NCBI RefSeq assembly: GCF_037042905.1
Contig: NC_087250.1
Coordinates: 15,812,001 to 15,876,000, forward strand
Direction: 5' to 3'
Source: Lytechinus pictus
Lineage: Eukaryota
DNA: 64,000 bases
Shown here: positions 14,301-62,379 of the stretch, piece after piece
Layout: every line of letters begins with the position of its first letter
Numbering within the stretch: the stretch's first letter is position 1
Position numbers and translations under genes: made by a program
The notes under the pieces: model-generated
Database searches by the model: none
Seen by the model: the letters and a program-made list of their open reading frames with translations, nothing else
What the model was told of the DNA's origin: nothing

Positions 14301-17300
14301 GTTAAAAAATTGAAAGAGTGAAAAAGCTACAAAACTATTTTAACTGTCTATTGCAACGACTAAGATAAGCATCAATTTTTAATGCATTAAATGTTAAAGG
14401 AGAAGCTGAATCTACCTATAACTTAGTTTGAATTAAAGCAGTAAAATAACATAATATTACTGGTGAAGCTTCCTAAAAATATGTTATTCAATAATATTGC
14501 TATTCAGCATCCGATTTGGCACCTATTTGTGAAATTATTAATATGGGTGATGAAACAAAATACACTGAAGACTTACATTGAATCGAGCTTGAAATCCCCA
14601 AAGAACGCACTACCAGGTATGTGCTTCATTCTCATGTACTTCAAATGTATCTCTTTTAACGATGACAGATTCTGAAAAGCGCCCTCATGCGTGAACTCAA
14701 ACCTATTGTCATTCAAAAGGCTATAAAAAAAACGATATCAGGAAATTAAATGAAACAATATGAAAATGAAATATATATCATTCATTATAATTATGATAGC
14801 GGTATTACTCCTAGCTCTTTTTCATCAACTCAACAACTCCTTCAAGTACCCAGACTAAGAACTAAGACGCATGGCGAAAGGTCCTTCTCCTACAGTGCCC
14901 CAACCCTTTGGAATTCCCTCCCCAGTACTCTCTGATCACAAAATAATTCTGGACTTTTCAAATCCCAACTTAAAACATTTCTCTTCAATGAAGCATTCAA
15001 ATAGACCTTTCCCTATACTTATGCCATATGTAATTGATTAATGTTGATGTTGTTTAAATGTTTTTCTAAGTAATTCCTTACGTTGTATAATTTTATTTCT
15101 GTAAAGTGCATTGAGAGTCCTGTCAGGTCTGAAATGCGCTATATAAGAACTGCATTATTATTATATTGATATCAGATAGGGAATGTTTTGATTTGTATAT
15201 GAGCAATACCATAAAATATGTATGTCTGACCTCTGTCTGTGGGACCTACAAGGTTCTCAAAGGACTATGACTTGGTCAGTTTATGAACTGAAGGAAGACT
15301 TGAGAAAAATGGGGGTCGGCCGTACAAAAAAAAAGGTTGATAATTTAATGGAATTTTTGCTACACATATCTACAAAGCATGGTTTGGTGTTTGGGGACTC
15401 CATTGGACATAATCTCTAATCAGCTTGCAAGGGGTTACCATTCATGTTTTATGAATCACTATACTTTATGCATTTTATGTATTTCAGGGTTCCCATCTTT
15501 TCAAGAAAACAAAATTCCTTGATTGGTCCCTGATGAAGTTTAAAAATTCCCTAATAATCATTAAAACCCATTCCCAGTTTTGCATGTTTTTAAGTTGTTG
15601 CAGTGAATTACATTATTTCTCAGTATAAAAAAACTGTACTGCACTAAAAGAGGCTACACTAAAAAAACACCATTACCAGTCATTCAATGGATGTTGTTTT
15701 AATATACAACAAAATGTAACAGAGTCTGACTGACTACCATGATTTCGGCTTATGGGCCGATCAAAATTCCCTGATTTTTCCCTCATTTGAGGCTTTTCCC
15801 TGAATTGAGGTAATTGTAATCAAATTCCCTGATTTTTCCCTGACTGGAAAAAAGTTAAATAATTTTCCCTGATTTGATGGGAACCCAGCATTTGTATATA
15901 GACTTGGCAAATATATCAAATCAAATTAAAAACCAATTGAAAAATATAATTGGAGTAATTAGAAGTATAATAGCATAACAATAACAATAATCATGTTACA
16001 TGCACAGAAGATGGATGTTTCATCAAAAATTATTGGAAAAGGGATTAGAATAAATTCTAGTTTGTCATTACTGTATATAGATTCATAATACGAGTGTACT
16101 TTATTTTTTTTTTTTTTTTTTGGGGGGGGGGGTCACCTGTGCTGGGAGGCGAAAAGCGAACTGAATCACTTCGACCCGCAGGTCTCTCATCCCGATATAA
16201 CTGATTGGGGGGAGGGCAGGTGGACCACTGCACCGGGGTTTCCCCCTACTCTTATACGAATAGTGCAGTGGGTTCTTAACGTGCAAAGGTGGTGACTCTC
16301 CTCTACACGGGGCCTCCATTTAACATCCTATCCGAGGGACGGAGTGTTTTCCATTGTAACATAGCCTGCATCTATGAAACATGGCAGAGGCGTTTACACA
16401 CAACACACTGGCTTCAGTCATCCGCCCGGGGTGCACGGACTCGAACCCACGATCTTTGGCTCGACGGGCAGACACATTAACGATTGAGCCAACAACTTGA
16501 CAGTCATAGAGTGAATTTGAACATTATCTAACCAAGGACTAGTTAGAGATAGACACTCATCTATTAGTGAATGAATTCACTAACATGTGACCATCATTCT
16601 GCTCTGAATAACATTCTTTTCATATTTGTCTACTTTGATCCTAGTGTGTCCTGCCGTCAATTAGGCCATGAGTTTAAAGAAAGAGTTTGTGATTAGACAT
16701 TGATATTGCAAAAACTGTATGCGCAGATGATGATAAATCACTTCAATCTTGGAAAATCCGGCAATGTGCAGTTTTGGTTTACCTTTGTTAACCTTAGTTC
16801 CATGTGTTTAAATTGGAAAACTGTATGCATGTTTTAAGATAGAGGCAATATTTGTGATTGACTGCATCTTATTTATAATCCCATTTTTCCAATTTTCCTC
16901 CTAATATTCCAGAGATACATGGTTACATCCATGTTGAGACCGTTTATCTCTTAATGTTATTGAGGTCATTATGTGCGTGCAGAAGTATGCGGATCAAAGA
17001 ATAACATTTTATGTCACAAAATCGTCTGCTTCTCAGTTTTGCTGCTCCAAATCTCAAACATGTTGATTGAAAAGCATGTTCTCACACAGGGCATCAGCCA
17101 ACAAACCCAAAACCAGGAAAGCTGTCCCTTTGTAAATATTCAGATATGCCTTGGTATTCGCTATTGTCAAAAAGCCTGTAAGTTCTCATTAAGATGCACA
17201 TAATCACGAGGTGGCGGACCACATTCGATCTAGAAAATGATCGCGTTGAATGTCCATCTATAATAATAATAATAATAATTGGATTTATATAGCGCTTTTT

Positions 17301-20300
17301 CCAGAGGATACAAAGCGCTGTTGATGGCATATGACAAGTTAAGGTTTATGGTTATATAAGTGCGTTATAGGTCTATTATCTAACAAAATACATGTACCGG
17401 TATACAAACAAATACATGTATGTATGATTGATTTTAAAATGAATTCTTCATGTAGAATACAGTGTATACAAATGATAAACAAAAACATGGATTGTAAAAT
17501 GATGCTCTTTCTAAATGGAAAGTACATTAGATTAACATCTTACGACCTAGTTTTAAATAGTCATATATACATGTCTTCCAATATTCAAACAGAACATTTG
17601 AATTTCACGAACTATGCATACATTTTCTCTGTGGATGGTGGAAACACGTTGTTTTCAACCGTTATGATGTCGTTGTTTGAGAGATCAAACTCCCTGACAG
17701 TATCAAGTGGTGTGAATGCCCCCCTTTTCAGATACACAAGTTTATTCCCTTCAAATTGCCTGCAAAAAGAGAAAGAGATTGACAAATTAAGTAGTTTAAA
17801 AGTAATATTCATATGAAATTCTGTCTTTGCCTTAATTTATGATATACTTTAATATCAACACAATCAACATAAATGTTATTGCGAAAGAATGTAATTTCGG
17901 TATAATACTCTGACTACCATGTATGAAAAATATCAGACGTACATGTAAATCTTTCACTCACTGTTAATTAATATTCATAAGTGGACCTATGAAGAAATGA
18001 TTGGTCAGTTAGTGCTCGTGCAAATTTTCACTGTATTTTCAACAAGAATGCACAATTATGCCTCAGATAAAATAATCAACAAATGTTGGAGATGTCAGAG
18101 AGTCTCACACACACCAAACACATATGTATAAGGCATCCCTCGTGAAGTAAATTAGGCCTGTGCCATCAGGTCATCATGACTGGTAAGGCAATCGTGTAGC
18201 CTGACAATTTGAGAAAAGGGCCATTAGTTGCCAAAGGGTCGGGTTCAGTTTAACCGACCCTTGATATCTTTATAGTGGCTGATGAATTTCACAAAATATG
18301 AGTAAATTGTACCCAAATATTCAAATATTTGACTGGTAGGTACAACAAATCTTCGGGTAGAATTTGACCGGATATTTTGGGAATTTAGCGGCCCCTCTTC
18401 TTGAATGGTCAGGTTATGGGATTGCCCAACCAGAGGTGATCCCGTGCAATGATGGAACAAGCACGAGGTAAAGGGTCAAACAGCGTGCAGTGCCTGAACG
18501 AAATTGAACCACAATCAATGCACAACAATGAACAAGAACATCAAGATTTATCTTCAAACCTTAGGGATATATCTTTTTGGATTTCAACTGCTTTGGGTCG
18601 GTCTGAACAATGGACTCATTCGGGTCTATGGATTCTGTAAGCAATGGGCCAATCACGGAGCGACATTGATTGTGAAATCGACCCTTTGCAACCGCGACCT
18701 CGCAAGGCATACCGTTCCATCACTAAAAAAATGATGGACAAAACAAAATCAAAGTCATACAAATAAGATAAACGGAGCTGCATCGGGTCACATGATGCAG
18801 TTTTGACTAATCGGTTATTAGTGATAATCTTTGTAATACGAGATGTGTAAAATTTATTTCTTACACTATGTCCAGGCTTTGTAGGTGTCCTGCAACAAAG
18901 GCCTCCGGTACCAACTTAATATTGTTATATGCTAAGTTCCTGGAAAAGGTAAATAAAGAGAGAGACAACAATTCATATTTGGAAGAATGATTTAACACAG
19001 GTAACAGACTGCCAGCATCATCAAGCAAATACGAACTAGCAGAATTATACCCCTTTCATATTGCGCTTTTCACCGGCGAAGTTCGCCAGCGAAGGGGAAA
19101 GTGTCCAGTATGAAAGGTACACAGGAGAACTTCACCGGTGAAGTTCGCCGGCGAACTTCTCCACCTCTAGAGGTGTAGAACTTCGCCGGCGAAACTGTTT
19201 CACCGGCGAAGTTCGCCGATGAAAAGGCCAGTATGAAAGCAACCCGGAGAACTTCTCCTCTTTAATGACGTCAGAGGTCAATTTTTTTCTCTCCCGAACT
19301 CCCCTGTACCGAGATTCCGCGCGCGATAGTTGCAAGCTCAGCTGAATGCTATGGCCAAGTAGATACAGTACCCTCGAACATAATTTTTTTTTAATACTAA
19401 CAATATTTATCAAAAAGCACTTTTTACATGAATAAAATGCGCTAAAATATAAAAACAAAGTGATATTGTTTGTTTTTCTCATAATACTTACCAAATATTT
19501 TGTAATTAATTTTTTTATACCTTTTTGTAATAGGTAAGAAGTAATGTTTACAATTTTCTTTCGTTTGTTCTGCACGTGCCGAGCACTGACTAAATCAAGG
19601 GAATACTGACACTGTTTACTAGATCTGGCCGTCATCTTGACAACTTTACTAACAAGTTAGATCTACACAAAGGAAATAAATAATCGTGGTGCCGCGGAAA
19701 TGCAGAATGAGGCCAATCGCCCGTTGACTTTCGCCGGAGAAGAAATGTCAGTGCGAAAGGTACATTTTTTTCTTCGCCGGGGAAGTGAGGAATGCGAGGC
19801 AGAGAAGTTCGCCGGTGAAAAATGAAGAGGGCAGTATGAAAGGGGTATTAATAGCACAACTTCAAGTACTCAACTAGACAAATCTGGCAAGGTTTCTATT
19901 TACCCATAATGCAACATTCTGAGGAGTGCATTCTCGTTGTACAAGCCTATTTGAATGATAAAACACTATTTCCTTATTTATTGCCTCCATACTACAATTA
20001 TAATGTTACATGTAGCTTACAAAATAAGGACTTTTCCTCTCAAAAACATTAATTAATTTATCTTTAAGAAAAATATTACGATGACTTGCTTTAGTATCTG
20101 TATTATAGGATATAGTTTCCACAGGTGGGGAGCACTCGCAATCATTGGTGGACCCCGTCTTTCAGACCTCAAGACCCTTTCTCAAAAAAATATACAGTAC
20201 GCATGATAAAAGATTCTTTCAGACGCCACCTGGCCCCGCTCACAAGACCCCCGTTACGAAACATCTCCATTCCTCAGGCCAGCCAAAATTGTCAAGAGCG

Positions 20301-23300
20301 GACTGCAAAATCACTTGTCCCATTGCAGTTCTGGACCATAAGTCTACATGATATGACTTGCGTCTTCGCAATAAGAATATGCATGCGCATGGACTTTATC
20401 TTTACGAAATTGTGGTCGTTCACGTTGCCATTAAGGATTCAGCATCCTTAGATTACCGATACGCTTACATGTACATAGGCCTTACTTACGCTAAGATCTA
20501 TATCTAGATCCAATTCTTAAGTGTTTATCAAATTGCCATTAATGACAAGACAAAATGCTAGGCTAGGCTAGGGCTAGCCTTGGATAGGGTATTAACTTTA
20601 TCTCAAATCTGGACCTGTCTAATTCCTAATGTTGTGGTAAACTTAGAACTAGTTAATTTCAAACTTTATGTGTTTATGTTAGAACACTGAGCTTGGTAGC
20701 CTTGGTTTAATAGGTCTAGGCCGTATGTATATAAAACTAGTCCTAGATCTAAATTAATTTATTTTAGATCTAGTCTCGTCACTAGATCTTGCTAAACTCT
20801 GATCTACACTGACACTCTTATAAGCATAGAACGTGTTAGCGTCAGTGCAGGGCGCAGAAGAACATAAACAGTAAAATACATACATGTAAGAAATTAATTA
20901 TATTTTTGCATTTTTTTGTAGATATTTATTAAAAAATGTAATTATTGATACTCCCACCAAAAGTTAGCATTCTACTAGCTATACAAATTGAGTTAAAGGC
21001 AAAAACTTACACACAAAAAACAAATTTAGGGCAAATTTCATGCGCTTATTTGCATAATGAAAATATAAACAATTTTTTGAAAATTTTACTACAGTCTTGT
21101 AGTTTACATCCAGCTCTACATGTATGTGTGTTCAAATTTTTGCGGCGATCACGCAATCAGCGTCCGAGATCTGAGGGGGGGGGGTTAAATTGACCCCCCA
21201 GTATATTCTGGTCCGAAATAGCCCATTTTAGATAGGGTTAACCCTATCTAGGCCGGGGTATTTGGGAGTTATGGCCGGGGGGGCCTCCCGGGCCCCCCCT
21301 TGAGATCTCGGCCGTCGATCGCGCCAAAAATTGGCACGAAGGTCGTCTGGGATATTATCTACAAAATTGTATAGTAATTTATTTCATGCGAATTGTTATT
21401 AAGTAATTATGCTAATTTATGCGTAATTAGTATGCAAAATCATACTTTTTCCTCTAACTCCATAAATAAAGCTCCAAATGTTCTAATTTCTGGCATAGAA
21501 ACTCTTTGTGGTGTTCTTAGCAAGTTTACATAAAAAAATTGTGATATCAGATCAATTTCTTCTGTATTATATTGTTTTTTGCAATTTCTTATGTATTTCT
21601 CTGTTTTTTGGACCCTTTGTTTTTCATTGTTTTTTCAATGAAATTCTTCGGGGACTCTTCTAAGATCATAAACAGCATAAAATACATACATTTAGACCAG
21701 CAAAACTAAAAATAATCATACAATTATTATATTTGGTTGAAAACACAATTTACGTTGACTTTGTACACGAAATCACGTTTTTGAGCAATTTTTTGTCTGA
21801 CATGCACTTACATAACATTGTGTAATTTCTGAACCGCGTACCCGGGTGACGCAAAATTGGTCTCAAAAGTTGAGCAAGACTTAAAAGTAAAAAGTCAGTG
21901 AGCAGCGCGGTCAAAAAAATTTGCGCGGCGAAAATATCGCGCGACTCGTTGAGGGGGGGCCTTGGAGGCCCCCCCCCCCCGGCCTAGATAGGGTTAAGGG
22001 TGGCAGGTCAAATATGTCACCTTTTAAAACTCTGTTTTTGCAGTAGATACTTACACATGAGTTGTTAAAAATAAGCATCTGAAGGCGTCAATGTCGATCA
22101 ATTCGTCGTCCAGATCATTATAAATTAAACCAATATGTACAAGATTAGGAGCTTCGCAAAATGTGTCATTACTGATTCCATCAATCAAATTGTGTGCAAG
22201 GGACCTGAACAATGATAAAAATAATAATAGCAATGATAATGATGATAATAGTAATAATGATAATGATGAAAATAATGATAATATTAATAAAGATAACAAT
22301 AATAATAATGATAACAATGGTAATATTACATGTAGTAGTAATACTAAAAATAATTGCAAGAATAATAATAATAGTAACAATTATAATAACAGATTGCACA
22401 GCTACTATAATATACTCCATGACGCACAACAAAATACGTTGTACATTTCAGAGATTATTTCTGGGAAGATAAGTCCGAAGATGAGTTTTCAACATATTAA
22501 CTGTGGGTATAATTCCCATACAGGGAACAGTAGTGTGTCACATAATTTGAATTGGGTATAATTATTTAAACACAGACGAAAATATGATACTGATAATTAC
22601 AATAATAATAATAGACACGGATGTATATAGTCAGGGCCAGATTGATCACTTGATTTCATTTCAATGATTTAGCCCCCTTCAAATAGTCGAGATGTAGACA
22701 TGAAAGTTTATAAACATTGGATTACTACAATTAAGCATAATAAGCCAGTTCGTAGTTCCTTTCTGCACATGATCAAAAGATTCTACGCATGATCAGAGGA
22801 AGGTCATTTGTACTAAAGTGACATGGTGGTTTAAAATCTAATGAGATAAGCACCAATGTTGATGTCTTGATTATTCATATATTCTTTTGAATTGTGGTTT
22901 TCATTTACATCCACAAAAAACAACAACGCGTCCACGAACGACTGGTTTTCACAGTTTGCCAAGTACATTGTGCAACATGCTATGATATGCATTCAAAGTA
23001 GGAATGCAACAAATACCTTCATAAAGTGTTCATTGGTGTGTTATTCTAGTCCCCTGGTCTATTCAATTTCTTCATCCTGCTATGTAAGGCAAGCTTACGT
23101 AATATTTTGCTTTGAAATCTGCCTATCATAATGAAAGAAATGAAAAGTCATTTGACCGAAAATTGTCCATGAGTAACTAAGAACTGGTCTATAGCTATAT
23201 ACAATAAGCTGAACCTGAAGTACGCTCACTTATGCAATTTTAAAGGGAAAGTTGACCCTGCTAAAAAGCAGAAAAATATGAGAAAAATGTTAGTGAAGGT

Positions 23301-26300: not shown

Positions 26301-29300
26301 CCACGTTCATTGACCATAGATGACATTTGAACGGTGACTTAAGACTTGTCAACTACACCCATGTCCACATTTCATTCACTCTATCCATAAACTTTCAAAG
26401 TTATGATGGCAATTCATCAATTACCCCAACATGGCCTAAGTTTATTGACCTTAACTGACCTTTGACCTTGGTTTTGTGACCTGAAACTCACAGGGGATGT
26501 TCAGTGATACTTGATTACTGTATATCCCAAGTTTTATGAAATAGATCCATAAACTTGAGAGTTAGGATGGTAATTCAACAAATACCCCCAACACGGCCAA
26601 AGTTCATTGACCTTAAATGACCTTTGACCATGGTCATGTGACCTGAAACTCGTACAGGATGTTCAGTAATACTCGATTACTCTTATGTCCAAGTTTTATG
26701 AACTAGATCCATAAACCATCAGAGTTAGGATGGTAATTTAACAAAGACCCCCAACACGGCCAAAGTTCATTGACCTTAAATGACCATTGACCATGGTCAT
26801 GTGACCTGAAACTCGCACAGGATATTCAGTGGTACTTGATTAACCTTATGTCCAAGTTTCATGAGCTAGATCCATAAATTTTCAAAGTTATGATAGTAAT
26901 TCAACAAATACCCCCAACTTGACCAAAGTTCATTGACCCTAAATGACCTTTGACTTTGATCATGTGACCTGAAACTCAAGCAGGATGTTCACTAATACTT
27001 GATTAACCTTATGCCCAAGTTTCATGAACTAGGTCCATATCCTTTCTAAGTTATGATGTCATTTCAAAAACTTAACCTTCGGTTAAGATTTTGAAAATAA
27101 TTCTCCCAACATGGTCTAAGTTCATTGACCCTAAATGACCTTTGACCTTAGTCATGTGACCTGAAACTCAGGCATGATGTTCAATAATACTTGATTAACC
27201 TTATGTCCAAGTTTCATGAACTAGGTCCATATACTTTTTAAGTTATGATGTCATTTCAAAAACTTAACCTTAGGTTAAGATTTGATGTTGACGCCGCCGT
27301 CGCCGTCGGAAAAGCGGCGCCTATAGTCTCGCTCTGCTATGCAGGCGAGACAAAAAGGAACGGTTGGCATGTTTGGGAAACAAAGGGTCGTGTGTTCGAA
27401 TCCCACCGCAGTCTAGCACCCTTTGACCACTCTCGAGCCAGGTGCTAAATGGGTACCCAGTAGGATACTGCCCAGGGAGTGGAGAAGATGCATACATTGT
27501 ATGCGGGTATGCAAGGATCCGATGATCAGGGTAATAATATGCTGTAAAGTGCTTTGGGCCATTATGGAAAAAGTGCTATAAAAAATGGCTATTATTATTA
27601 TTACTATCCAGGCGTGCCTGCACACAATGCAGGCAGTTTCTCCACTCCCTGGGGAGCATTCCAACAAGAGTTGCAAGACTCAATTGCTATGCATACTACA
27701 TAGGCTCTCGCATCCTACCGGGTAGCCATTTAACACCCGGGTCGAGATTGGCAGTGTGTGGATTAATAATAATAATTATAATAGGCATTTATATAGCGCC
27801 ATCAATCTAGAAATATTCTATTCTAAGGCACATTGTTTATTATTATCATTACCCCGGCTTTAGCTCAAGCGTTCAGTGCATTCAAGGAATTAATCCTGCC
27901 GGGTACCCATTCACCTCACCTGGGTCAAGTGCAGCACAATGTAGATAAATTTCTTGCTGAAGGAAATAACGCCATGGCTGGAATTGACACCTTACCAAAG
28001 GACGCTAGGCCATGGTGGGATTCAGACACATGACCCTCTGATTTCAAGGCAAGAGTCAGAACCGCTACACCACACTGCTTCCACATTACTGTTATTTTGC
28101 GTTGGTTCTGCTAACAGGTATGTGGAGCGTTGTGGCCCAGTGGATTAGTCTCCGGACTTTGAAACAGAGGGTCGTGGGTTCAATCCCAGCCATGACATAA
28201 TTTCGTTCGGCAAGAAATTTATCCACATTGTGCTGCACTCGACCCGGGTGAGGTGAATGGGTACCCGGTAGGATTTATTCCTTGAATGCTTTAGCGCCTA
28301 TATGGCCGCTCAGCTACAGCCGGGGTAATAATATACCAAGTATATTTTCAGCGCCTTGAGCACATAATCAATGTGGATTTGGCGCTTTAGAAATACTCTA
28401 TATTATTATCACTATTATACATTACCACTAATACTTACAGGGTTTCCAAGTTTTTGAAATTGTCGTAGTTGAATATCCCATGTGGAACAGCTCGTAACTC
28501 GTTATCACTCAAGAACCTCAAGAGATAAAAATTGAAATATGGAATATAATAATAACAATAAGAGTACATGTAGTAGTAATAATAATGATATAAATAGCAA
28601 TAAATACATGTACAATAATAACACCTATAATGATATTATAATTACAACAAAAATAATAATAATAAATAAATGAAATAAATTGGTACTTATAAAGTGCATA
28701 ATCAATTGAAATTGCTCTATGCGGTTTGTACAAATTGTTCTCCAATATTACGGTTTTACTACAACAAAAATAGATGTTTTCAAATTTCTTTAAAAGATTC
28801 AACAGAAGTAAATGATCGAAGGTAAATTGGTAAACTATTCCATAATTTGGGACCGCAAAAATCAAAACTAGCTTCCCCCCTTTTGAAACAACTCTAGGAA
28901 TGTGTAAAATTGTAGTGTCTTCACTAGAACGAAGTCTATAATGTGACCAGTATGAGGATCTAAGTAAACTATAGAGGTATTTGGGTGCCTTTTTATGCAT
29001 ATACTTATAAACTAATGATGATGGTGATGATAATGAAGATGATAATAATAATGATAGAAATTATTTTTTAAATAACATAATTAAAACTTGCGATTTAAAC
29101 GTTTTTTTATTTACGGTTCAAATCTGCAATGAAAATTCTAAAACTAAATGCGAAGAGGTTTGAACCTCACTTTGGCATTTTAGCAGCTAGGGTATTATTT
29201 CCCTCCTAACTCTCTGACGGAGTAAGATTTTTCTTCAGTTTTGTTTTTGTCATTTCATTTAAAACACTCTAACGATTTCTAATTTTCAACATTACATTTG

Positions 29301-32300
29301 ATGCCTTTCTTCCAGGAACAAAAATCGAGAAATCAGAAATCGGTCAATGTGCGTAGGCACTTTAGAATCCAGGTGCTCACATCATTTTTTTGTTCTTTGG
29401 CTCATAACCTCATAATGGTCTTTTTTTCCCACTTACTGCTATTTAAAAAAATGGTGAGAAAATTTAAAGAAGCTTGATAAAGTCCTATCTACTGGAAGGC
29501 AAATATATACAAGTTACTTACAAGGTTCTTATCTTCTGTCCAGCATTATAGAAAGCAGAATATGAAATTGACGTCAGATCGAATCCAACCTTTTGTGAAT
29601 GAAGACGTCTAAGATTTAATAATGAACAAAAAATATACATAATTAAAGTTTTCCCCTGAATAAAAAAAATACTAGCTGGATCTACATGTATAGATTGCTT
29701 TTGCCTGTATTAAATTTATTGCCTGTATGGATGTCATCCAACAATTCAGCTACTGTTAATGGTTTTCAAGTCCTGGGTGATTCCTGCTTTTCTGTCCTAC
29801 ATATTTGCAATTTTGATTACAGCATTGGCTGCATCGGAAAAAACACCAACCAAGTTGTAAATTCCAAGACTGACAACTACAGTGGGATCTCTAAGAGCTC
29901 AGTCGTAGACTGACAACTACCGAGGGATCTCTCTGAGCTCAGTCGTAGACTGAAAACTACAGAGGGATCTCTCTGAGCTCAGTCGTAGACTGAAAACTAC
30001 CGAGGGATCTCTCAGAGCTCAGTCGTAGACTGAAAACTACCGAGGGATCTCTCTGAGCTCAGTCGTAGACTGAAAACTACCGAGGGATCTCTCAGAGCTC
30101 AGTCGTTGACTGACAACTACAGAGGGATCTCTCTGAGCTCAGTCGTAGACTGAAAACTACCGAGGGATCTCTCAGAGCTCAGTCGTAGACTGACATCTAC
30201 CGAGGGATATCTCAGAGCTCAGTCGTAGACTGAAAACTACCGAGGGACCTCTCAGAGATCAGTCGTAGACTGACAACTACCGAGGGATCTCTCAGAGCTC
30301 AGTCATAGACTGACAACAACTGAGGGATCTCTCAGAGCTCAGTCGTAGACTGAAAACTACTGAGGGATCTCTCAGAGCTCAGTCGTAGACTGAAAACTAC
30401 TGAGGGATCTCTCTGAGCTCAGTTGTAGACTGAAAACTACAGAGGGATCTCTCTGAGCTCAGTCGTAGACTGAAAACTACCGAGGGATCTCTCAGAGCTC
30501 AGTCGTAGACTGAAAACTACCGAGGGATCTCTCTGAGCTCAGTCGTAAACTGAAAACTACAGAGGGATCTCTCAGAGATCAGTCGTAGACTGACAACTAC
30601 AGAGGGATCTCTCAGAGCTCAGTCGTAGACTGACAACTACAGAGGGATCTCTCAGAGATCAGTCGTAGACTGAAAACTACTGAGGGATCTCTCTGAGCTC
30701 AGTCGTAGACTGACAACTACTGAGGGATCTCTCAGAGCTCAGTCGTAGACTGAAAACTACTGAGGGATCTCTCAGAGCTCAGTCGTAGACTGAAAACTAC
30801 TGAGGGATCTCTCTGAGCTCAGTCGTAGACTGACAACTACAGAGGGATCTCTCTGAGATCAGTCGTAGACTGACAACTACAGAGGGATCTCTCAGAGCTC
30901 AGTCGTAGACTGACAACTACAGAGGGATCTCTCAGAGATCAGTCGTAGACTGAAAACTACTGAGGGATCTCTCTGAGCTCAGTTGTAGACTGACAACTAC
31001 TGAGGGATCTCTCAGAGCTCAGTCGTAGACTGAAAACTACTGAGGGATCTCTCAGAGCTCAGTCGTAGACTGAAAACTACTGAGGGATCTCTCAGAGCTC
31101 AGTCGTAGACTGAAAACTACTGAGGGATCTCTCTGAGCTCAGTAGTAGACTGACAACTACAGAGGGATCTCTCAGAGATCAGTCGTAGACTGAAAACTAC
31201 TGAGGGATCTCTCTGAGCTCAGTCGTAGACTGACAACTACTGAGGGATCTCTCAGAGCTCAGTCGTAGACTGACAACTACTGAGGGATCTCTCAGAGCTC
31301 AGTCGTAGACTGAAAACTACTGAGGGATCTCTCAGAGCTCAGTCGTAGACTGAAAACTACTGAGGGATCTCTCAGAGCTCGGTCGTAGACTGACAACAAC
31401 TGAGGGATCTCTCAGAGCTCAGTCGTAGACTGAAAACTACTGAGGGATCTCTCAGAGCTCAGTCGTAGACTGAAAACTACTGAGGGATCTCTCTGAGCTC
31501 AGTTGTAGACTGAAAACTACAGAGGGATCTCTCTGAGCTCAGTCGTAGACTGAAAACTACCGAGGGATCTCTCAGAGCTCAGTCGTAGACTGAAAACTAC
31601 CGAGGGATCTCTCTGAGCTAAGTCGTAAACTGAAAACTACAGAGGGATCTCTCAGAGATCAGTCGTAGACTGACAACTACAGAGGGATCTCTCAGAGCTC
31701 AGTCGTAGACTGACAACTACAGAGGGATCTCTCAGAGCTCAGTCGTAGACTGAAAACTACTGAGGGATCTCTCTGAGCTCAGTAGTAGACTGACAACTAC
31801 AGAGGGATCTCTCTGAGATCAGTCGTAGACTGACAACTACAGAGGGATCTCTCAGAGCTCAGTCGTAGACTGACAACTACAGAGGGATCTCTCAGAGATC
31901 AGTCGTAGACTGAAAACTACTGAGGGATCTCTCTGAGCTCAGTTGTAGACTGACAACTACTGAGGGATCTCTCAGAGCTCAGTCGTAGACTGAAAACTAC
32001 TGAGGGATCTCTCAGAGCTCAGTCGTAGACTGAAAACTACTGAGGGATCTCTCAGAGCTCAGTCGTAGACTGAAAACTACTGAGGGATCTCTCTGAGCTC
32101 AGTAGTAGACTGACAACTACAGAGGGATCTCTCAGAGATCAGTCGTAGACTGAAAACTACTGAGGGATCTCTCTGAGCTCAGTCGTAGACTGACAACTAC
32201 TGAGGGATCTCTCAGAGCTCAGTCGTAGACTGACAACTACTGAGGGATCTCTCAGAGCTCAGTCGTAGACTGAAAACTACTGAGGGATCTCTCAGAGCTC

Positions 32301-35300
32301 AGTCGTAGACTGAAAACTACTGAGGGATCTCTCAGAGCTCAGTCGTAGACTGAAAACTACTGAGGGATCTCTCAGAGCTCAGTCGTAGACTGAAAGCTAC
32401 TGAGGGATCTCTCTGAGCTCAGTCGTAGACTGAAAGCTACTGAGGGATCTCTCAGAGCTCAGTCGTGGACTGAAAACTACTGAGGGATCTCTCTGAGCTC
32501 AGTCGTAGACTGAAAACTACTGAGGGATCTCTCAGAGCTCAGTCGTAGACTGAAAACTACTGAGGGATCTCTCTGAGCTCAGTCATAGACTGAAAACTAC
32601 TGAGGGATCTCTCTGAGCTCAGTCGTAGACTGAAAACTACTGAGGGATCTCTCTGAGCTCAGTCGTAGACTGACAACTACCGAGGGATCTCACAGAGCTC
32701 AGTCGTAGACTGACAACTACCGAGGGATCTCACAGAGCTCAGTCGTAGACTGACAACTACCGAGGGATCTCACAGAGCTCAGTCGTAGACTGACAACTAC
32801 CGAGGGATCTCTCAGAGCTCAGTCATAGACTGACAACTACTGAGGGATCTCAGAGAGCTCAGTCGTAGACTGACAACTACCGAGGGATCTCACAGAGCTC
32901 AGTCGTAGACTGACAACTACCGAGGGATCTCTCACAGCTCAGTCGTAGACTGACAACTACCGAGGGATCTCTCACAGCTCAGTCGTAGACTGACAACTAC
33001 CGAGGGATCTCTCAGAGCTCAGTTGTAGCTAAGACTTATAAAAGAATGATCGTAAACCATATCAGACCCTTCATAGATCCACTACTAAGAGACTCTCAGA
33101 ATTGCTTCCGACGGGAACGATCAACTATACTGTAGGTCAAATCCTTGCAATTAGGAGGATACTTGAAGGACTGAGGGATTAGAGCCTTTCTATAATTATC
33201 ACTTTCATTGATTTCAAGATTTCATTGATTTTACATGAAATCATGATTACATGTATTTCATATGTAAATACATGTACGTATATGACTCCCTTTTAATTAA
33301 ATAAGTTGCAGCAATGAATATCTAATGCATTAAATCAGTTGTATCAAATCTTTTTAATTCTTGGAGGACAAAATTTGAATAAACCTAATTTCACATAATA
33401 AAATACAAAAATAAACAAGTGAGAATACGACATCGTCAATTTACTCATGGAATGAAGACAAGCACAGAACTGTTTCACCAAAATCATGCAAATCTTTAAA
33501 ATGTCATAAATTTTTTTATCCATGTCCAATTTTGATCAAATTTTTCAGTGTCTTGTTTGTGTAATTTTTCTCTATCAATTCAAATCATATTATTTTCAGC
33601 CTGGAGTACCCCTTTAACAGGTTGTTATACTTACAGTGTGAGAAGATTTGGTAGATCAGTAAATGTCCTTGGTAGGAGAACACTCAGTTTATTGGTGTTC
33701 AAATCCCTGCATGCAAACATAGAAGACATAAGTTGGATAAAATGCCCTTTCCAAGCTTATGGATGCTAGAAAATTATTTAACCGTGACATTAAGAATAAT
33801 AACTACATTTATTATCATTATTATTAGTTTTATTGTAAGATTTTACCCATTGTATTTTTGTTGTCCTTTTATCGACCTAGCGCTTTGTAACTTTTGAAAA
33901 GCACTTTATAAGCAGCAAATACTGATTATTATCATCTATATAGAGCATTTTAACAAAGCATTAAAAATGCATATTTCGGTCTGTATTAATTGCCTGTGCA
34001 GTATTAGAGCGTATCCCTAAAAAGGACCAAAATCCGAGAAATTACAACGCCTACTTAGCTTGTTGCACGCGAGCAAACAGGAGGCTGAATGCCAAACATT
34101 TGTACCATTGCACAAAATACGTACCATCCAAAATGTACCGTTGCACGGCTTTAGGTGACGTCACAATATCCAAATAATGCACATAAGCGCGTGCATGCAG
34201 GGCCAAATAATGAACGATGTGCGAGAAGAGCCAATGGCTATAATACCGCACCGAGGTCCGCAGGACCGAGTGCGGTATATCCATTTGGCGTGTCGAGCAC
34301 AAGTTCATTTTTTCGGTCCTCTATGCACAAGAATGCGTGTATTGTTTGTTTTATATAACCCCTCCCCCTCACCCATGTTACTGAGTTGCCCTAAATGATA
34401 TATTTGATCTAAATTCTAGTTAATTCTAGATAATTCCAGAACTCGTACTACCCTGCACTCTGACGTCAGAGTGCAGGATAGTACTTTTGGTATGACGTCA
34501 GAGTGCAGGATAGTGCATTTTGGATGCAATAGTGCAATTCGCTGAATATCATGTGATCCGATTTGGACCAATCTGATTACAAAACATTCTTGGGAGTTGT
34601 ATAATACGATTTAATTTATTGCGCTCAGTAAAAATGAAGGTGCAATGCGCGTATAAGCCTGCTGGCTAAATGCGCAATGCTGCCCCAAGGTCATGTGCGC
34701 TTGTGGTATTTTGCTTTTCGCTTTCAATTTTTGTGCTCCCTTGTCATAGATTACTACAGGGATAAACTCTTGTTTTTTCATATTTTCGCTAAATTCCGAG
34801 GCGTTGTACAACATAAATAGCAAATATTCTTATTTGTGCGATGGTGCGAGATTTTGCATTCGGTGAAAGAAAGAAACGCTCTATTCAACTCGGCTAACGC
34901 CTCGTTGAATAGAGTATCTTTCTTTCGCCTCGTGCAAAATCTCGCACCATCGCACTCATGCCTATTTGTATACTATTGACTATGAAACCATATTCAACAG
35001 TCTAGTGCGCATGCGTGAATACGTGAAATATACAACGCATACAACAATGAAAATAATGCAATGCGCAGCATAGAGCACAATGACACTCAATGACGTCATA
35101 ATTAATTACACATATTAAAGTCGCATGTTAACAACAAAATTGATCCTAATAAAGTGATGACGCCATAAGTGATATGACTTTATCGTTCAAATTTCTCCCT
35201 CTTCGAGGGGGGGTGGGATAGATAATAATTATTATATTGGATGGCTTTATTTCATGGAATAACAGAAATATTCCAATCGTCGGGGCCAATATTCCACTCA

Positions 35301-38300
35301 TCTGCGATTCAGGAATATTTGCCCAAACTCTTGGAATATTTCTGGTATTCAATTCTGAGCCATCCAATATAATTTATAATTATTATCATTATCATAAAAT
35401 GGTTACATTTCATAAAGACTTGTTAAAATAACCATGCAACTGCACAATATCTGTAACAAATTTACTATCAACTGATCAAATTGAAGGAATTCATCAGCTT
35501 TTAACGTTTATTGCAAACTTGTTATTGTTATTATAACAAGTTTATGAGGTTGGATCCTGGTCTATGGCACAAGACTGGAATTTTGCAACATATAGGTCTC
35601 TCCATTCGAACCCCCTCCCCCCCCCCCCCCCCCCCCCCCCGCCTTCTATCTTAGAGCAAAAAGCCAGTTCGGAGTTCCATTCTGCACATGATCAGAAGAA
35701 GGTCATTTGTACTAAAGTGACATGGTGGTTTAATATTTAATGAGATAAACACCAACTTTGATGTCTTGATTATTCATGTATTCTTTTGAATTTGGTTTTT
35801 CATTAGATCCACAAAAAACAATGCGCCATTAGCGATTGGTATTTCACAGTTTGCCAAGTGTTACATTATGAATCTTATGCTATAGAGTTGTAGCAATTGC
35901 GCCCTCTTGAGTTGGAATTGACACGCCTGGAAACATGGGCTAGTTGGATTAAATGGTTGACTAAACTTTACATCCTAGACTTAGACTGTTTCTGTAGTCG
36001 TCGAGTTGGGTAACTCTACAGACAGAGGCAAACATAACACCAAGTACATTGATATAACAACATGTTAATGCATTCATAGCAGAAACGCAACAAATACCTT
36101 CATAGTGTTCAATATGTGCTATTTTAGTCACCTGGTCTACATGTATGCAATTTCTGCATCCTGCTATGTCAGGCATGATTACATACCTAATATCTCGCTT
36201 TGATATCTGCCTATCATAATGAAAGAAATGAAAGGACTCAATGGGCACTCAAATTATTTTTTGATAGGGGTGTGCCTCACAAAACCCTGAAATGGGGGTC
36301 TAAGGAACTGACCACAAGGGTAGAATACAGGGTCTTGGGAACTAAATACACACTTGGCGGTTAAAAAAACAGGGTCTACGGAACGGGATCTCAGTATCGT
36401 AAGGTACGGTGCATGTAAGCGCTGTGCATGTATACGTACCCTACCGGGCGTGGAGCTTCTAGCGGAGGAAGTTGTGAAGCCGTGCGTGCAGCTCTGGCAT
36501 GCGGTGCTCGCGCTGGACAATTTTGGCAGGGCTAGGGAATTGAGATGTTTCGTAACAGGGGTCTTGCGAGCAGGGTGGGGCTGCTTCTGAATGGAACTTT
36601 TGTCATTCAGAGTATCTAGAGTACTGAAAATTAGGTCTGAAAAAGGGGGTCATCAAAGCGACATGTCCCTGTACCCCCAATACATGTGAGTGACAGCACC
36701 CCCCCCCCTGCGCATATCATCCGGGGCCTGTAACACAAAGCTTAGCAATCATCATAGAAACACTTCTCTATGATTGATTCCATTGACTACAATACACAAT
36801 CAATCGCGAAAATCAATCGTAAGATTAATCGCTAACCTTTGTGTCACTGGACCCTGGAGATATTTAAGAGTAAACACTATTAAGTTGCAGCAAACTATTA
36901 TTTCATGAGAAAGTCTTTTAAATCATTGTCACCATATTATCATCTATCTAGATCTGGTATATTAATGTAAGCTTTTTTTTGTGAAATCATTATCTTAGCT
37001 AAAAACCAATAATTCTGATCATCACTTACAAAGAATTCTATATGTGGAACAGTGTATTAACATTTAAAAAATACCCGACTTTGGATGTATTTCCGTGCTT
37101 ATATTGCTCATTTCTCAGCAATTACAAATTTTCTTCCAAAGCTATTGGGCACATATTTTTCTTATTTATACATAGGCCTACAAATAGTTTGGTGGTAATT
37201 TCATTGGATTCTGTTCAAACTCATTTTGAGGTCGTAACCATTACTGGTATCTTTAATTTTCCCTGAAAAAATACCTGACATTTGATCAAATTCTGTGGTT
37301 ATTTTGGCACATTTTTTGTATAATACACCTTTATACAAACACTTGGGTGGTAATTTTATTGGATTCTCTTCAAACTCATTGTGACATCATTACCCCCAAC
37401 CAGTGGGCGCTTCATAATGCTGTTCGTAAGGTAAGAACGGCTGATGATCCTTTCATACACACTACATAATCACCAATGAAGATTTAATGGTGAATATCAT
37501 TTACCACAAGAAAGGTTCACCGGTTGTTCTCAAAGTCGCCCACTGGTACTGTATTCATCTCCCGGGGGGTCCACTACCATTCACGAGTGGATACCATGCG
37601 CGACCATGGGGTCTCGAAAAGCACCCTAAACACGTAATTTCCATAATCTGAAAATGCACCCCTTAACAAGTATTGGCGTGTGAAACCCTACCCTTAACAA
37701 GTATTGGAAACAAAACGATACTCATGGCAAATATTCCCTGAAATGAACCCCTAAACAAGTACAGGAATGCTTTATTGTTACGGGTCCTTCGGTCGTCGGC
37801 TTTACCTTATTTGGTTTAGTACGACCCCACCTTCTACACCTTGGGGCAAAAAGGACATCCTTTATTAAATATTTTAATTTTGTTTTATCATCCCCGCAAA
37901 TTCGACCCTAAACACGTAATTGTCCTAGCGAAATAGATACCCTTTTTTCATTATTATTGCGTTTTGACACCCTTATCACGTTACGTACGTAACGTGCCCA
38001 ATCGTGAAAAAGACATCCTTTTTACGTGTTTTTTTGGTCGCGCATGGTATCCACTCGTCAATGTAAGTGGCCCCCCCGGGATTCATCTTTCATGATAGAA
38101 AGCAAGCTGACTTACAAGTGTATTAGATTGGATATGTGATGAAATATTTGTGGTCCAAGCTTGAAGAGGTCATTATGATGGATCTCCCTACAGGTATAAA
38201 CAAAACAAAAATAAAGATGAAAATAGGATAAACATTCCTATTATATCCTATTTCTTATTTCCTATTATATCAAGAAGTAAATAATTTCAATTCATTTATT

Positions 38301-42500: not shown

Positions 42501-45500
42501 TAGGTTAAGTTAAACTGAAGTTATCACGTTTACAAGGACTGCAGAAGGGTAAGATGAAAACATGTCACTGTGACCTTGACCTTTGACCTTTTGACCTCAA
42601 AATCAAGAGGCTTCCTGGGATCCATGATAGTATCCTACATACAAAATTATATGAGCCTAGGTTAACTTAAATTGATGTTATCTCGTTTACAAGGAAAAGT
42701 TAACGGACGGACGGACACCGAGCGTGATACCATAATACGTCCCGTCGAGATGGGCGTATAAAAAGTAGGAGCTGATCAAAGGAGCGCAGAAGGGGAGGGC
42801 CATGCATGCCCATAGCATACAAACCTCGTTGTTAGCGTGAGAGGGCCATGCTTAGCTTACCTATTTTTCTATACTCTTATACGTTTAATTATGGAGTGAC
42901 AAGGACAAAAGAGTTGTTACTGAGACTCCTATGAAACAAACAAAAATGAAAAAACCAGGAGCTCAAGAAATGAGCGCAGAAGGGGAGGGGGCCAGGCTTG
43001 CCCTATTTTTTTAAAAACATTTTATACTTTTACTTATAATTATGGAATGAAAAGCACCTAAAAGTTGTCGTTACTCTGACTCCTATATACATAAAATGGG
43101 GGGAAAATATCAGCAAATGAGCAGAAAATAACTGAAATTAGCAAACTTGACCGTCTATATCGATTGAATGTTCTATGATTTTAACAAGCACCAAAAGTTG
43201 TTTCTGAGACTCCTATGAAACAAAAAAAAAACCTAAAAACAGAGCAAAAGAAAACAATGGCTGGATTGAAAGAGTGTAGAATTAGAGGAGGGGCTTGGCC
43301 TATTTTTTTTTCAAACGTATCGTACTTTTAAATTATGGAATAACAAGCACCAAAAAGCTGTTTTATGACAATAAGCCTGTTCACGGTTGTAAACTGCGCA
43401 CAAGCAGAAAAAGGTCATTTGAGATAAACCATGAAGGTGGCTTTCAAATTCACTGACATAGGCATTTGTGATTTAATGATTATTCATGTATTCCTTTCAG
43501 AATATTCATTTTATCACATCCAAGCTGAAGAGTAATAAATAGAGCCTTCATAATCACTGGTATTTGACAGTAGCCTAAACAATAGTCAAATGTGCCAAAG
43601 GCAGACAATAGAACAGATTTCCAAACTTTATCCCTGATGTACTATTCTAGTCACCTGGTCTATACAATGCCTTTTGTTTTTAGAATTTGAATACTCTACC
43701 GGTAAAGCTTACGCAACATCTACATTTGAAAATGATAGTGCTTATCCTAATGAAAAATCACAAAGGTCATTTGAGAAAAGTTGATCATGAGCTAACCGTG
43801 AACTGGCTTATTATTCACTGCGTATCTCCAACCCCCTACCCCACCTCTCATCAATTTAAAGGACAAGCCCACCCCCACAAAAAGTTGATTTGAAAAAACA
43901 AGCATAATGCTGACAATTTCATCAAAAACGGATGTAAAATAAGAAAGTTATGACATTCTTTAAGTTCACTCAATTTCTCAAAACAGTTATATGCACATCC
44001 TGATTGGTATGCAAATGAGGGGACAGATGATATCACTCACACACAATTTCTTTTGTATTTCATTATATGAAATATGACTTTTTTTTTCTCCCCATGGTCA
44101 TGTGAAAGTTTTATTCCTCCCTGAACATGTAAAAGTACTATATGGTTCAGTCAAGTTGGTCATTATTGTCAAATCTGTAAAAATTGAAGTAATATTGCAT
44201 AATTCAAAAAATAAAAAACAAAATAAATGAGTAATGGACATCATCAATTGCCTCATTTGCATGTCACTGAGTTGTGCATATCACTGTTTTGTGAAAAATA
44301 GGCGAAAATTTAAAATATCATAACTTTCTTATTTTACATCAGATTTTGATGAAATTTTCAGCATTAAGCTAGTTTGATTTTTCTCTATTGATTCATATCA
44401 ACATTTTTCTGGGGTGGATTTGACCTTAAAGAATTCCTAGTCCCGGTGAGACAACAACAAAAATTAATTGATGGTGACAATTTTGTAATGACAGTGATCA
44501 ATAATTATTTCAGTGATGAGGAATGATAAATAGCTATAAGCTACAAAATGGTTTGGTGAATTCCCCTTATAATCAAATTTATCAATATTCTAATGTTAAG
44601 GGTGGGAAGAGCAAATTAATATTGGCTTTACTGTTCCTTGATGTATAGGTGGCAATAACATGTGGGAAATATAAATGTTTCCCTTTATGCCTGTATTTTC
44701 ATTTGCACTGCACTGGAAATAAATAATAACAATAATAATATTCAACAACCATTGCTGGATAATTCCAAGTAACAATTATTACCATTTAATCCTTGCATAG
44801 CGCATATCTCACGCGACAGAATATAAGAAAGAAAGGTAGAGATTGATAAATCAAGAAATAAATTGTTTAGAATTAGAATAATTGAATAAATAAACAGAGA
44901 AAATTGTCAAAGAAGTTGGACAGAGGGGTGGAATCTACACGTGACATGAATTAACATCAAAATATAAATGAATTGGGCTGTCATGAGGAATAGCGGAAAG
45001 AGAATACTCACAAAAGCTCAATCGATGTTCCCCAGAAAAACTTTCTCGGTAAGATGGTCAATGAATTGCTATTTAGGTTTCTAGAATTTAAAAAAAATAC
45101 AAAATTTGGGGCATTTAATATCATTCTTATTTATCAGTATAGTCAAGGCATTAGAGTAAAGCAATATGACATTTGGGAACAGGTTTCAATTTGCGATGTT
45201 AGTAACATTGAAGGCACCCCATATTTTCACAATGTAAATGCAAGAGCAAGCAGCACAAAAACCACATGCTTGTCGCACATTGTGAATACCAGGCCCGGTT
45301 GCCATTTTTCATTGTCCATTACAAGCTAAATTACGCTCCCATAAATAATTAATAAACTTGGCTAATATTTTACATGTCTTTGATTAACACCTTGAGGGTG
45401 CTGCTTTGCCCTTATTACAGTCACTCCTGTGCATACTTTGTGACAGTGGCAGATCGGGGGGGGGGGGGGCAAATCTGGACTACCCTTGGCCCTCCCCCCC

Positions 45501-48500
45501 CCCCTTGAGAGGCACAAAACATATCTTTTAGTGAAATATGCAGGGATGCCACTAGGTGTCCTCCAAAAATACTGAAACTTATCGCGGGCCGGGATGCGGG
45601 GATAGTGTCCAAGAATTTTTTTTTTTGGGGGGGTCCACCTTTAATTTTGGGATGGACACATGTCACAGGTAAAAAATTGGACAAGCAAAAAAAAAAAAAA
45701 AAAAAAAAAAAATGGAGGTGGGGGGTCCGCCCCCACCTTAAATTTAGGGGAGGGGGGAGGACCAAGTGGCTTCTTACCTTGTTGTGATCGATGACTTTGA
45801 AGTCAATTAGGTTTGAAAAACTGACGGTAGTTAGTTGTGTGTTTCTCATAGAACGCTAGACCAAAAGCTTCAGTCTCTGTATTTTGGTTGTTCAGCTGAA
45901 CCGAGTTAGCTCCACTCACCAATACATAGACTGAAGAGTTGTTGGCCCGTACATAAAGACAACGTATCAGCTCACCCAGGGCTAGCTGATACGTAACCCA
46001 AGGAGCTCCGGCCCGCTTTCCGGGCCGGAGCTCCCTGGGTTCCGTATCAGCATGCAGCAGTAACGTTAGATCTAACATTCGGCGGAAACCCGATTTTCGG
46101 ATCGTTTTTGGTACATAAAATGTCACATTATAAAAAAATAATCACATCCAAACTTACGAAAAAATATATAAAATTCAGAAACATCGTACCTTACACCGTA
46201 GTTACCGCTAATTCCTTTCAAATGATGATCAAAACTTAGTCATCCTCGAATCCTTCGTTGGACATCGTAAGTTGCCATCTTGGATGACGTCATCATATTT
46301 ACAGACGTATTTACCAGTCGCTATTATACCGCGATTCGTGCCGCTACTTTGCGCTTGTGTATGTGCGTGCGTTCGGAACTTGTCGCTCGCATTGATTGGC
46401 CAGGATATCGATAATTCTAATCAGAAAGCCTTGATAAAAGCATAACTCAATGAACGTAGTAGGCAGTGCGCGCGTTTATAAATTATGTACTGTATAAAAG
46501 CAAATATCTCGGGGAAACATCTCTCACTCGGTCGATCGACATGCATCGCAATCGGGAGAGATAGGGGGGAAAAAGGAGGACTTTCCCGTTTTTTTAATAC
46601 ACAGAAAACAGGAAAAGTCGGAAATACGGAAATAAGACAGATAGCAGGAAAAAAGCCGGAATTCCGTATAAATACGGAAAAGTGGCATCCCTGAATATGT
46701 CATGCATGGGCAAGTGAGGACCTTTTTTTTCCTTGTCAAATTGTTCATGGATCAAAATGACATCGATTTGGATCCACCCATAATTTGTAATATGTACCAT
46801 TCAAGAAATCAATTGAGCAATGGCCTTTAAATGTTCAAAAACGAATCCAGCCCATGCCATGGTAGTTTGAATACAAAGCTTTAAAAAAAGTGAGCTTCAG
46901 TTGATGTAATGCCATTCATTAACAATAATGCACTCATCAACTACTTGTGCAATACAATTCATGCAAATGGACATAACTCGGGAATATATCTCCAGTATCC
47001 CGTGACACAATAATTACTCACAGATTTTTCAGACTCGGAGGGAAAGCTGCAAATGGTTCTGTTGGAGTGTACACAAGGTGATTTCTTGAAAAGTCACTGA
47101 AATAAAAGCAAAATTATTTAGAGTAATCTTTGATGAGCTTTAAATCCTCAAATTGGCATCATTGATATATTATGTCTTATGTGGAGGAACAGTGGCCGAG
47201 AGGTCCAAGGCCCCTGACTAGACACATGGAAGTCTGGGTTCCGATCCCTGGCCACACCACCTATGCCTGTGAGCAAGGTATTTAAAGGTCAAGTCCAGCC
47301 CAGAAAAATGTTGGTTTGAATAAACAGAGACATTTTAAAGTTTTGCTTATTTTCTCAAAACAGTTATATGCACTAATCAGTGACATGCAAATGAGAGAGT
47401 CAATGATGTCCATCACTCACTATTTCTTTTGTTTTTTATTGCTTGAATTATACAATATTTCAATTTTTACAGATTTGGCAATAAGGACCAACTTGACTGA
47501 ACCATAACATGTTAAAACAATGGTAATACCACATGTTCAGGGAGGAATAAAACTTTGTTTCACAGGACAACAGGGAGAAAATTGGAATATTCCATATTTC
47601 ATATAATAAACTACAAAATAAATAGTGAGTGATTGATGTCATCAGTCCCCTCATTTGCATACTGACCAGGATGTGAATATAACTGTTTTGTGAAATTCAG
47701 CGAAACTTTAAAATTTCATAACTTTCTTATTTTATATCCAATTTTGATGAAATTTTCAGTGCTATGCTTGTTAGATTTTTCTCTTTTTGTTGAGGTGGAC
47801 TTGTCCTTTAATAATGCATTACTGTAAAGCTCTTAGAGACTACTGATGAAGTGTTATTACCCAACAGTGCTCTTTTATCCAACATTAAAATAAATGGAAA
47901 TGCATTCTTGGTAAATATGTGTGCCCTTGTTTAAAAAGGATCGTCTCTATCGTTAGGCAAAAGAACAGAGTCAAGAATAGGTGGAGATTTATTTCGATAA
48001 ATGCGAACAAGATTAAAACTTGACAATTCTAGTAATAACAGAAGTTTTGGTATTTCCAAAAAATATCAACTTTTTTACCTACACCCCTTTTTAATGAGAG
48101 TGCCCCACCCCTTTTTATTACACCTCTTTGTAATGACAGTGACTACAAAGGTTATACAAAAATTATTTCTTTTACTTTAAGCCTACATGTAATGACAGTG
48201 CCCCTGCCTTCCCCCCCCCCCCCCACACACACACAAATAATACAAATATTATTACTTTTACTTTGTACACTGCCTTGTTACAGTGCCTTCCCCCTTTGGA
48301 CTTATGCCTCCTTGTAATGAAAATGCCCCCCCCCCCCCGGATCAAACAGTGATAACATTCACTTACGCCTCTATCAGTTCAGTGCAGGCAGTTACTGGTG
48401 GAATCTTGGTTATGTCACTATTGTGTATGATTCTATGCAATGAAAAACGGGGAAATAGAATACATGTAAGCATTCTGATATTTATATAAGTGCAATTATG

Positions 48501-58543: not shown

Positions 58544-58867
58544 TTCTGTTTATAGGAGGGGGTGGGGTGGGTTAGAGAATTATTCGAAACTGTGTGTAAT
58601 CAGTTATATTAAAATAATTATGAAGCATTCTCATCGCATACCACCAAATGGAAAGCCACTTAGCTCAGATGAGTATCTCTCATTCCAGTATTCCTCAGCG
58701 GTCCAACTATGAGATGCTTCGGGTAGGTAGCCGGCTAGAAGGGCGGCAAAAATGAACAGGGACGTTTTCATGATGCTGAAACGCTCTCAATCTGAAAGAT
58801 AGTAGAACATACAAGATTATATAAGGCCAACAGCCTTGTCAATAGGTCCACCTAATCTCCTCAACTG

Positions 58868-62361: not shown

Positions 62362-62379
62362 ATAAAAATCAAAGGTAAA

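Follow-up and report, generated by a model that had tools for sequence, protein, structure and literature searches.

A LINE-derived 40-bp minisatellite, probably grown in place within a putative leucine-rich repeat gene intron of Lytechinus pictus

A 64-kb stretch of the Lytechinus pictus genome (contig NC_087250.1, positions 15,812,001 to 15,876,000; the whole stretch is called the window here) contains a tandem array whose 40-bp unit corresponds to codons from the reverse transcriptase (RT) of a long interspersed nuclear element (LINE). The array is best explained as a locally grown, LINE-derived minisatellite that is non-coding and without function of its own, located in an intron of a leucine-rich repeat (LRR) gene, a reading to which we assign a probability of about 0.82. 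A preliminary description of this DNA had proposed that RT codons were amplified in situ inside an intron, that short dyads could have favoured slippage, and that the locus captures the birth of a satellite. Much of this agrees with the results below; the claimed left flank of parent sequence, the dyads and the idea of a newborn satellite fare worse.

The array occupies positions 29869-33028 of the window (plus strand) and comprises 79 units of 40 bp with no indels, each unit being 13 RT codons plus 1 nt. Tandem Repeats Finder (TRF) called 29867-33028 with a period of 40, 79.1 copies, 94% matches and 0% indels; a script cutting from 29869 gave 79 whole, gap-free units ending at 33028; and a 23-nt unit probe matched 79 times in the window, always inside the array (chance mean 0.00 in 100 shuffles), so that no unit copy was found elsewhere in the 64 kb with this probe. 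The approximately 79-fold amplification described previously is therefore confirmed, but the unit quoted for it is that of unit 2 alone, one of 79. The units fall into 30 types, of which the commonest has 12 copies, and their mean pairwise difference is 6.6%; the GC content is 0.48 at 30001-32000. The most parent-like copy is unit 2 (29909-29948, plus strand), which translates to TDNYRGISLSSVV and is identical at 13 of 13 residues to proteins P0019 and P0004, in support of the derivation of the unit from LINE RT codons. The NYRGISL motif is kept in 10 of 79 units, a stop is present in that frame in 41 of 79, and the longest open stretch in any of the six frames is 39 codons. By unit size (40 bp), the array is a minisatellite.

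The earlier claim that parent sequence flanks the array on both sides is not supported: there are 190 bp on the right, but only about 6 nt on the left, two of them shared with the unit end. The right remnant (33029-33218, plus strand) consists of decayed RT codons with a frameshifting 5-nt insertion near 33127-33131, one stop, and residues altered in invariant alignment columns (N to K, R to H, G to C). The last unit was correctly read as running in frame into RT sequence and, after the frameshift, to FIDFK, where the homology ends at 33218. The insertion resembles a 5-nt micro-duplication with one mismatch, which would be a second small slip within 236 bp. The left remnant (29863-29868, plus strand) is the two codons SK, in register with the array, again as described before; its last 2 nt are the same as those at the unit end (microhomology), and the other four of its six bases (Ser plus A) would fit by chance with a probability of 0.028. 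Further left, 11 of 12 codons match at most 1% of 122 homologues, the ones out of 124 that contain the motif and have sufficient flank. The LINE piece is 236 bp long, truncated at both ends and decayed. No repeat of at least 8 nt marks both of its junctions; the repeats of that length that were found (29808/33527 and 29814/33244) are located away from them.

When the array was collapsed by script to one unit, the locus aligned with P0023, a relative of the parent, at residues 611-659 (83.7% over 49 aa) and 658-690 (69.7% over 33 aa), and 62 of 77 codons through FIDFK matched the best relative. The proposed derivation depended on such a contiguous RT alignment and stands. P0001, which is the last unit with its in-frame continuation, found three proteins among four candidates, 79-83% identical and all with RVT_1; it matches RVT_1 itself over domain positions 7-50, with an E value of 0.00049 that does not reach the Pfam cut-off. 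P0023 has 1,042 aa with Exo_endo_phos and RVT_1 domains, and searching with its RT region gave, as named relatives, uncharacterized proteins from Diadema antillarum (86%), Branchiostoma and Acropora. This architecture, observed in the relative rather than in the remnant, is that of an open reading frame (ORF) of about 1,000 aa with an apurinic endonuclease and an RT, which we take to be characteristic of the RTE clade. The parent LINE is described here as RTE-like on the basis of this architecture and that clade description, the hits being without clade-labelled references.

Other traces of the parent family are distant. No other part of the parent LINE was found in the window, and the Protein Data Bank gave no sequence match for the remnant. 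Metagenome loci, of which 432 were confirmed and 80 kept, gave no close DNA of the family, the best being 57-65% identical across the remnant, and a tandem of the unit segment was absent from the 80 kept (TRF rows with a period of at least 10). One metagenome contig (L040:567-971) carries a two-copy tandem duplication of about 200 bp (90%), apparently in the RT region of a related LINE; it may be an independent small duplication. The NYRPISL motif near 63180, offered earlier for comparison, does lie in an ORF (62844-63998; RVT_1 E 3.7e-40), but the LINE concerned is a different one, with 31% identity to the parent family. This frameshifted element of another family occupies 62366-64000 on the plus strand and continues past the window end.

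The position of the array relative to its parent suggests that amplification of the unit took place at the present site, as had been proposed. This local origin is supported because the array passes unbroken into RT sequence at 33029, is in register after SK, and has no unit elsewhere in the window.

The arrangement of unit types points to growth by blocks. In a recent block duplication (30309-32388, plus strand), units 12-38 align with units 39-63; across the 24 paired units (960 bp) there are 4 differences, the alignment needs 4 gaps of unit size, and units 25-37 equal units 49-61 exactly (520 bp, 0 differences). These 13 consecutive identical units at lag 24 compare with a maximum of 4 in 500 unit-order shuffles. 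Because 4 differences in 960 bp are far below the mean pairwise difference, we infer that about a third of the array (approximately 1 kb) was added recently in a single step. Identical pairs make up 14% of neighbours vs. 25% of units at lag 24, which makes unit-by-unit slippage unlikely as the main mode. Differences from unit 2 total 200, from 23 distinct variants including 10 singletons, and no variant is fixed in all 79 units. All four gametes are present at 8 of 9 pairs of common sites, a pattern that suggests either that units exchange sequence internally or that the same mutations recur. Under a post hoc definition of the ends, T13 is found in 1 of 20 end units vs. 39 of 59 middle units (p 1e-6), and the 20 end units contain 7 of the 10 private variants. 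CpG transitions were seen at 3 of 4 possible sites, vs. 5 of 36 for other transitions. According to one survey, gene conversion is regarded as the main source of change in longer repeats, and slippage is not (PMC3389668). Multi-unit unequal exchange and conversion after a small first duplication are well supported here. The array is not a fresh slippage product: it has 30 unit types, a recent block duplication and recombined variants, and its ends resemble the parent whereas its middle is derived. With units that already differ by 6.6%, the reading as a snapshot of satellite birth is not supported.

Dyads within the unit had been put forward as a possible aid to slippage, with three assigned to each unit. 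The junction dyad (AGTC-gta-GACT) exists only across junctions and occurs at 63 of 78 of them. Of the two internal dyads, TGAG-ggatct-CTCA is present in 23 of 79 units and CTGAGCTCAG also in 23 of 79; no unit has both and 33 have neither, so the assignment of three per unit is incorrect. The parent-like monomer folds at -2.3/-3.1 kcal/mol vs. shuffle means of about -3.7 (p 0.84/0.62), the parent-like trimer is similarly unremarkable against shuffles (p 0.30/0.29), and the founder unit ranks 41 of 197 remnant windows in folding. The commonest derived unit alone was somewhat more stable than shuffles (p 0.02-0.20). With a founder unit that is no more stable in folding than its shuffles, and growth that proceeded by multi-unit blocks, dyad-driven slippage is not supported as the way the array grew.

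As a lead only, it may be hypothesized that common variants perfect quasi-palindromes. A first test gave p 0.002-0.011 for the seven commonest variants. On retesting with CpG removed and classes matched, in 12 settings, the top five variants gave p 0.01-0.23 and the full set of 20 gave p 0.09-0.39; the low values depend on T24A, a variant found on the wrong background. One dyad is made perfect by C30A and T26A, C13A and C13T are each complementary to one allele of position 26, and in unit 75 the three loop bases 24-26 are replaced exactly by their reverse complement, a 3-nt inversion.

The intron named in the preliminary description is flanked by minus-strand exon candidates, and the array is most likely located in an intron of a minus-strand LRR gene, as judged from sequence. 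The putative host intron (28517-33634, minus strand) is 5,118 bp long, or 1,998 bp minus the 78 extra units; the array accounts for 62% of it, and the LINE piece lies antisense to the gene. The exon candidate upstream of the intron (33635-33706, minus strand) has 72 nt and encodes one LRR, with a CAG acceptor and a GTAAGT donor (LRR_8 E 0.0033, below the Pfam cut-off). Its downstream counterpart (28439-28516, minus strand) has 78 nt and is LRR-like, with a GTAAGT donor and a less usual GAG acceptor. Further phase-matched, LRR-like exon candidates on the minus strand are found at 51194-51265, 47022-47096, 45012-45080 and 38116-38187, and at 22055-22204, 18865-18939, 17622-17759, 14577-14720 and 2421-2495. 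Among six exon peptides scanned, four matched LRR_8, one of them above the Pfam cut-off. No sign of array function, or of an effect on the host gene, was seen.

At the 3′ junction of the RT remnant, a 12-nt direct copy of 33203-33214 is present at 33220-33231 (plus strand), followed by short inverted, filler-like snippets. Next to it lies a dispersed repeat resembling a miniature inverted-repeat transposable element (MITE) at 33231-33617 (no strand assigned), 75% identical to 2921-3313; its left side seems to have been clipped, and its right terminus is at 33617. The LINE may have lost its 3′ part in either of two ways, which fit equally well: the piece was captured at a break, or a 5′-truncated copy was subsequently shortened by a deletion that joined it to the MITE-like repeat. 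Eight sequencing runs were listed, all with shares of 0.06-0.07 and no RNA run among them, which says nothing about expression. Contigs from four of the eight, which seem to come from relatives and not from the present genotype, were aligned to 32709-34500. Depth was 0 over 32709-32948 in three of the four runs, with slight cover in X5, and missing cover of this kind says nothing about absence; the RT remnant was covered only by diverged contigs in the four runs. At 33617, between 97 and 214 contigs per run depart into unrelated sequence in all four, giving heterogeneous loose ends. In run X1, a 477-nt contig aligned at 33617-33782 takes in the upstream exon candidate and shows 14 differences; with 53 letters over on the MITE side, it may represent an empty site of the MITE in a relative.

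How the array began is less clear than how it grew. It would have started from the internal piece of an RTE-like LINE, lying antisense in the LRR-gene intron and visibly cut at both ends and decayed. A single slip or template switch on a 2-nt AG microhomology may then have duplicated 40 bp, a step that has slightly better than even odds within this model. A 6-bp stem, with one arm at each end of the unit, could have assisted. Subsequently, the array would have grown, and would still be changing, through multi-unit unequal exchange and conversion-like shuffling; for this step support is good. A few early mutations, some at CpG, would thereby have spread through the middle while the ends stayed parent-like. 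If this course is correct, the array is predicted to be length-polymorphic.

Several points weigh against this reading. The first duplication is poorly explained: the unit boundary shows 2 nt of microhomology to the left flank and 0 nt to the right, and microhomology of at least 2 nt is found at about 18% of random 40-nt offsets. The boundary stem, a 6-bp inverted repeat with arms at the founder-unit ends, has a background of 874 in 39,764 control windows (2.2%) and was noticed before testing (post hoc). A 6-nt direct repeat brackets the unit at a spacing of 45, not 40. Repeated mutation could yield the four-gamete patterns, and ancestral states at silent sites, including C vs. A at position 13, are not fixed without parent DNA. 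The host gene is predicted from sequence, with one of six peptides passing the Pfam cut-off. Two initiation routes do not fit. A Haber-Louis origin calls for in-register bracketing repeats of 5-10 bp (PMC3389668; PMC6947457), and the 6-nt repeat predicts a unit of 45 bp. Strand slippage at non-contiguous repeats calls for an incomplete terminal unit (PMC3389668), and all 79 units are whole.

An alternative that bears on this weak step is that the first duplication was made during insertion of the LINE itself. The array starts 6 nt from the left end of the LINE piece, at the seventh of 197 possible 40-nt windows (a post hoc count), and the absence of any variant fixed in all units is consistent with an early first duplication. 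Retrotransposition has been proposed as a trigger of tandem repetition, in the portion of the survey available (PMC3389668). Like the endonuclease-independent L1 insertions described in the accessible part of Sen et al. (2007; PMC1920257), which are short, often intronic (7 of 21), and accompanied by filler, the piece is cut at both ends, has no tail or target-site duplication, and is followed on the right by filler-like DNA. However, those insertions were proven by empty orthologous sites, whereas the left end of the present remnant is equally explained as a later deletion breakpoint. The 5′-junction duplications reported for R1 and R2, in what is accessible of that study, are of target DNA, not element DNA (PMC2718515), and an origin at insertion leaves most copies, with variants shared in blocks, unexplained. 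We consider such an origin unlikely. A more elaborate form, in which the first tandem copies were written at the LINE 5′ junction during integration and template switching at quasi-palindromes then mutated the array, is improbable; if true, the locus would record the retrotransposition-coupled birth and hairpin-templated evolution of a minisatellite.

The unit might instead belong to a multi-locus satellite family, with this locus as its birthplace or as a moved copy carrying RT flank. Satellites tied to LINE ORF2 are indeed listed in an available extract of PMC9659126, but no unit lies outside the array in the window, LINE codons in register at both array ends fit an on-site origin, and human repeat clusters derived from transposable elements (TEs) are single-locus in 5,747 of 5,932 cases, as given in the accessible text (PMC3389668). 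The unit-junction pattern had 0 matches in metagenome and viral contig collections, which carries little weight because these collections are non-animal. Wider membership of this kind is improbable. An assembly artefact affecting the array or the duplicated block, such as two haplotypes stitched together, seems very improbable. The exact 520-bp duplication could be read in this way, and neither a contig nor a read crossing the array was seen. Yet the array has 30 unit types without indels, a graded polarity, and private variants mostly at its ends, unlike usual collapse or expansion errors, and the duplicated block shows four substitutions along with unit gains and losses. Overall, on-site growth from the LINE piece is the preferred reading.

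In relation to known systems, TE-derived tandem repeats are common and satellites from LINE ORF2 have already been reported, going by the portions of the literature available (PMC3389668; PMC9659126), and the array is a tidy but ordinary example. A human survey, as far as its accessible part states, counted 7,276 such repeats (23% of the minisatellites and satellites examined), with 601 associated with L1, and 94% have no accepted initiation mechanism, no flanking direct repeats and no clipped last unit (Ahmed and Liang, 2012; PMC3389668). The array resembles these repeats in being a transposon segment repeated in place by local duplication, for most of them at a single locus, and, like the 94%, it is without flanking direct repeats or a clipped last unit. 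In contrast, the human repeats mostly have 2-3 units (Alu means of 2.3-2.4) vs. 79 here, and the parent of the array is an RTE-like LINE of a marine invertebrate, with a conserved RT motif as the unit. The same portion of the survey defines minisatellites by a head-to-tail unit of 10-100 bp and filters for at least 20 bp, GC of at least 40%, and at least two copies (PMC3389668); the array has a 40-bp unit, 79 copies and GC of 0.48. It assigns a repeat to a TE on overlap of at least one period or at least 70% likeness to a TE consensus, and the unit is in register with the RT remnant, with 13 of 13 residues identical. The array falls short of the 95% unit identity that the survey filter demands as a non-biological cut-off (94% by TRF, 6.6% pairwise difference), and its 40-bp unit is below the strict satellite definition of more than 100 bp (PMC3389668).

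Closer parallels are found in PROsat of Phodopus roborovskii (L1 ORF2) and chicken HinfI/SCR1 (partial CR1 ORF2), both tandem DNA related to LINE ORF2 coding sequence (PMC9659126; PMC6947457, each in the part available). There, ORF2 sequence is part of the repeat; here RT codons make up the entire unit, and the parent still lies next to the array. Mouse Ms6-hm and Hm-2 (MaLR-derived) and Alu-derived human minisatellites likewise expanded within a retroelement copy, but from non-coding long terminal repeat or short interspersed element DNA rather than from RT coding DNA (same partial sources, PMC9659126; PMC6947457). A literature search that left most subscription journals uncovered turned up no title concerning this locus or any RTE-derived minisatellite of sea urchins.

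The rest of the window holds further repeats and gene-like features. A 49-bp tandem array lies at 49171-51132 (26 copies, 72% matches, with 87-194-bp higher-order units), a 198-bp array at 60494-61415 (4.7 copies), and a 75/197-bp array at 10437-10891. Two foldback-like elements at 57997-58345 and 61829-62353 have 16- and 42-bp repeats in opposite orientations. The putative host is a multi-exon LRR gene at 2421-58790 (minus strand), with many phase-matched exon candidates of 69-78 nt, and seemingly extends past the window start. A putative signal-peptide exon lies at 58642-58790; a search with its stretch 58643-58771 gave no homologue among six candidates. In an intron of the same gene, an LRR-like frame with stops and frame changes at 12000-12979 (minus strand) is possibly a decayed LRR pseudogene; its atlas matches are all LRR clusters at 0.94, with low recognition.

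The array reveals no new kind of element. Its copy number is uncommon, and so is the fact that the entire unit is a conserved RT motif to which the parent sequence is still attached. Conservation of the motif makes the origin easy to see, and nothing shows that the motif favoured expansion. As the founder is readable from protein conservation, the derived state can be assigned for most variants, something that minisatellites rarely allow. The locus belongs to the 94% of TE-derived tandem repeats that have no accepted initiation mechanism in the accessible portion of the human survey (PMC3389668), and it provides a clean case for teaching and testing.

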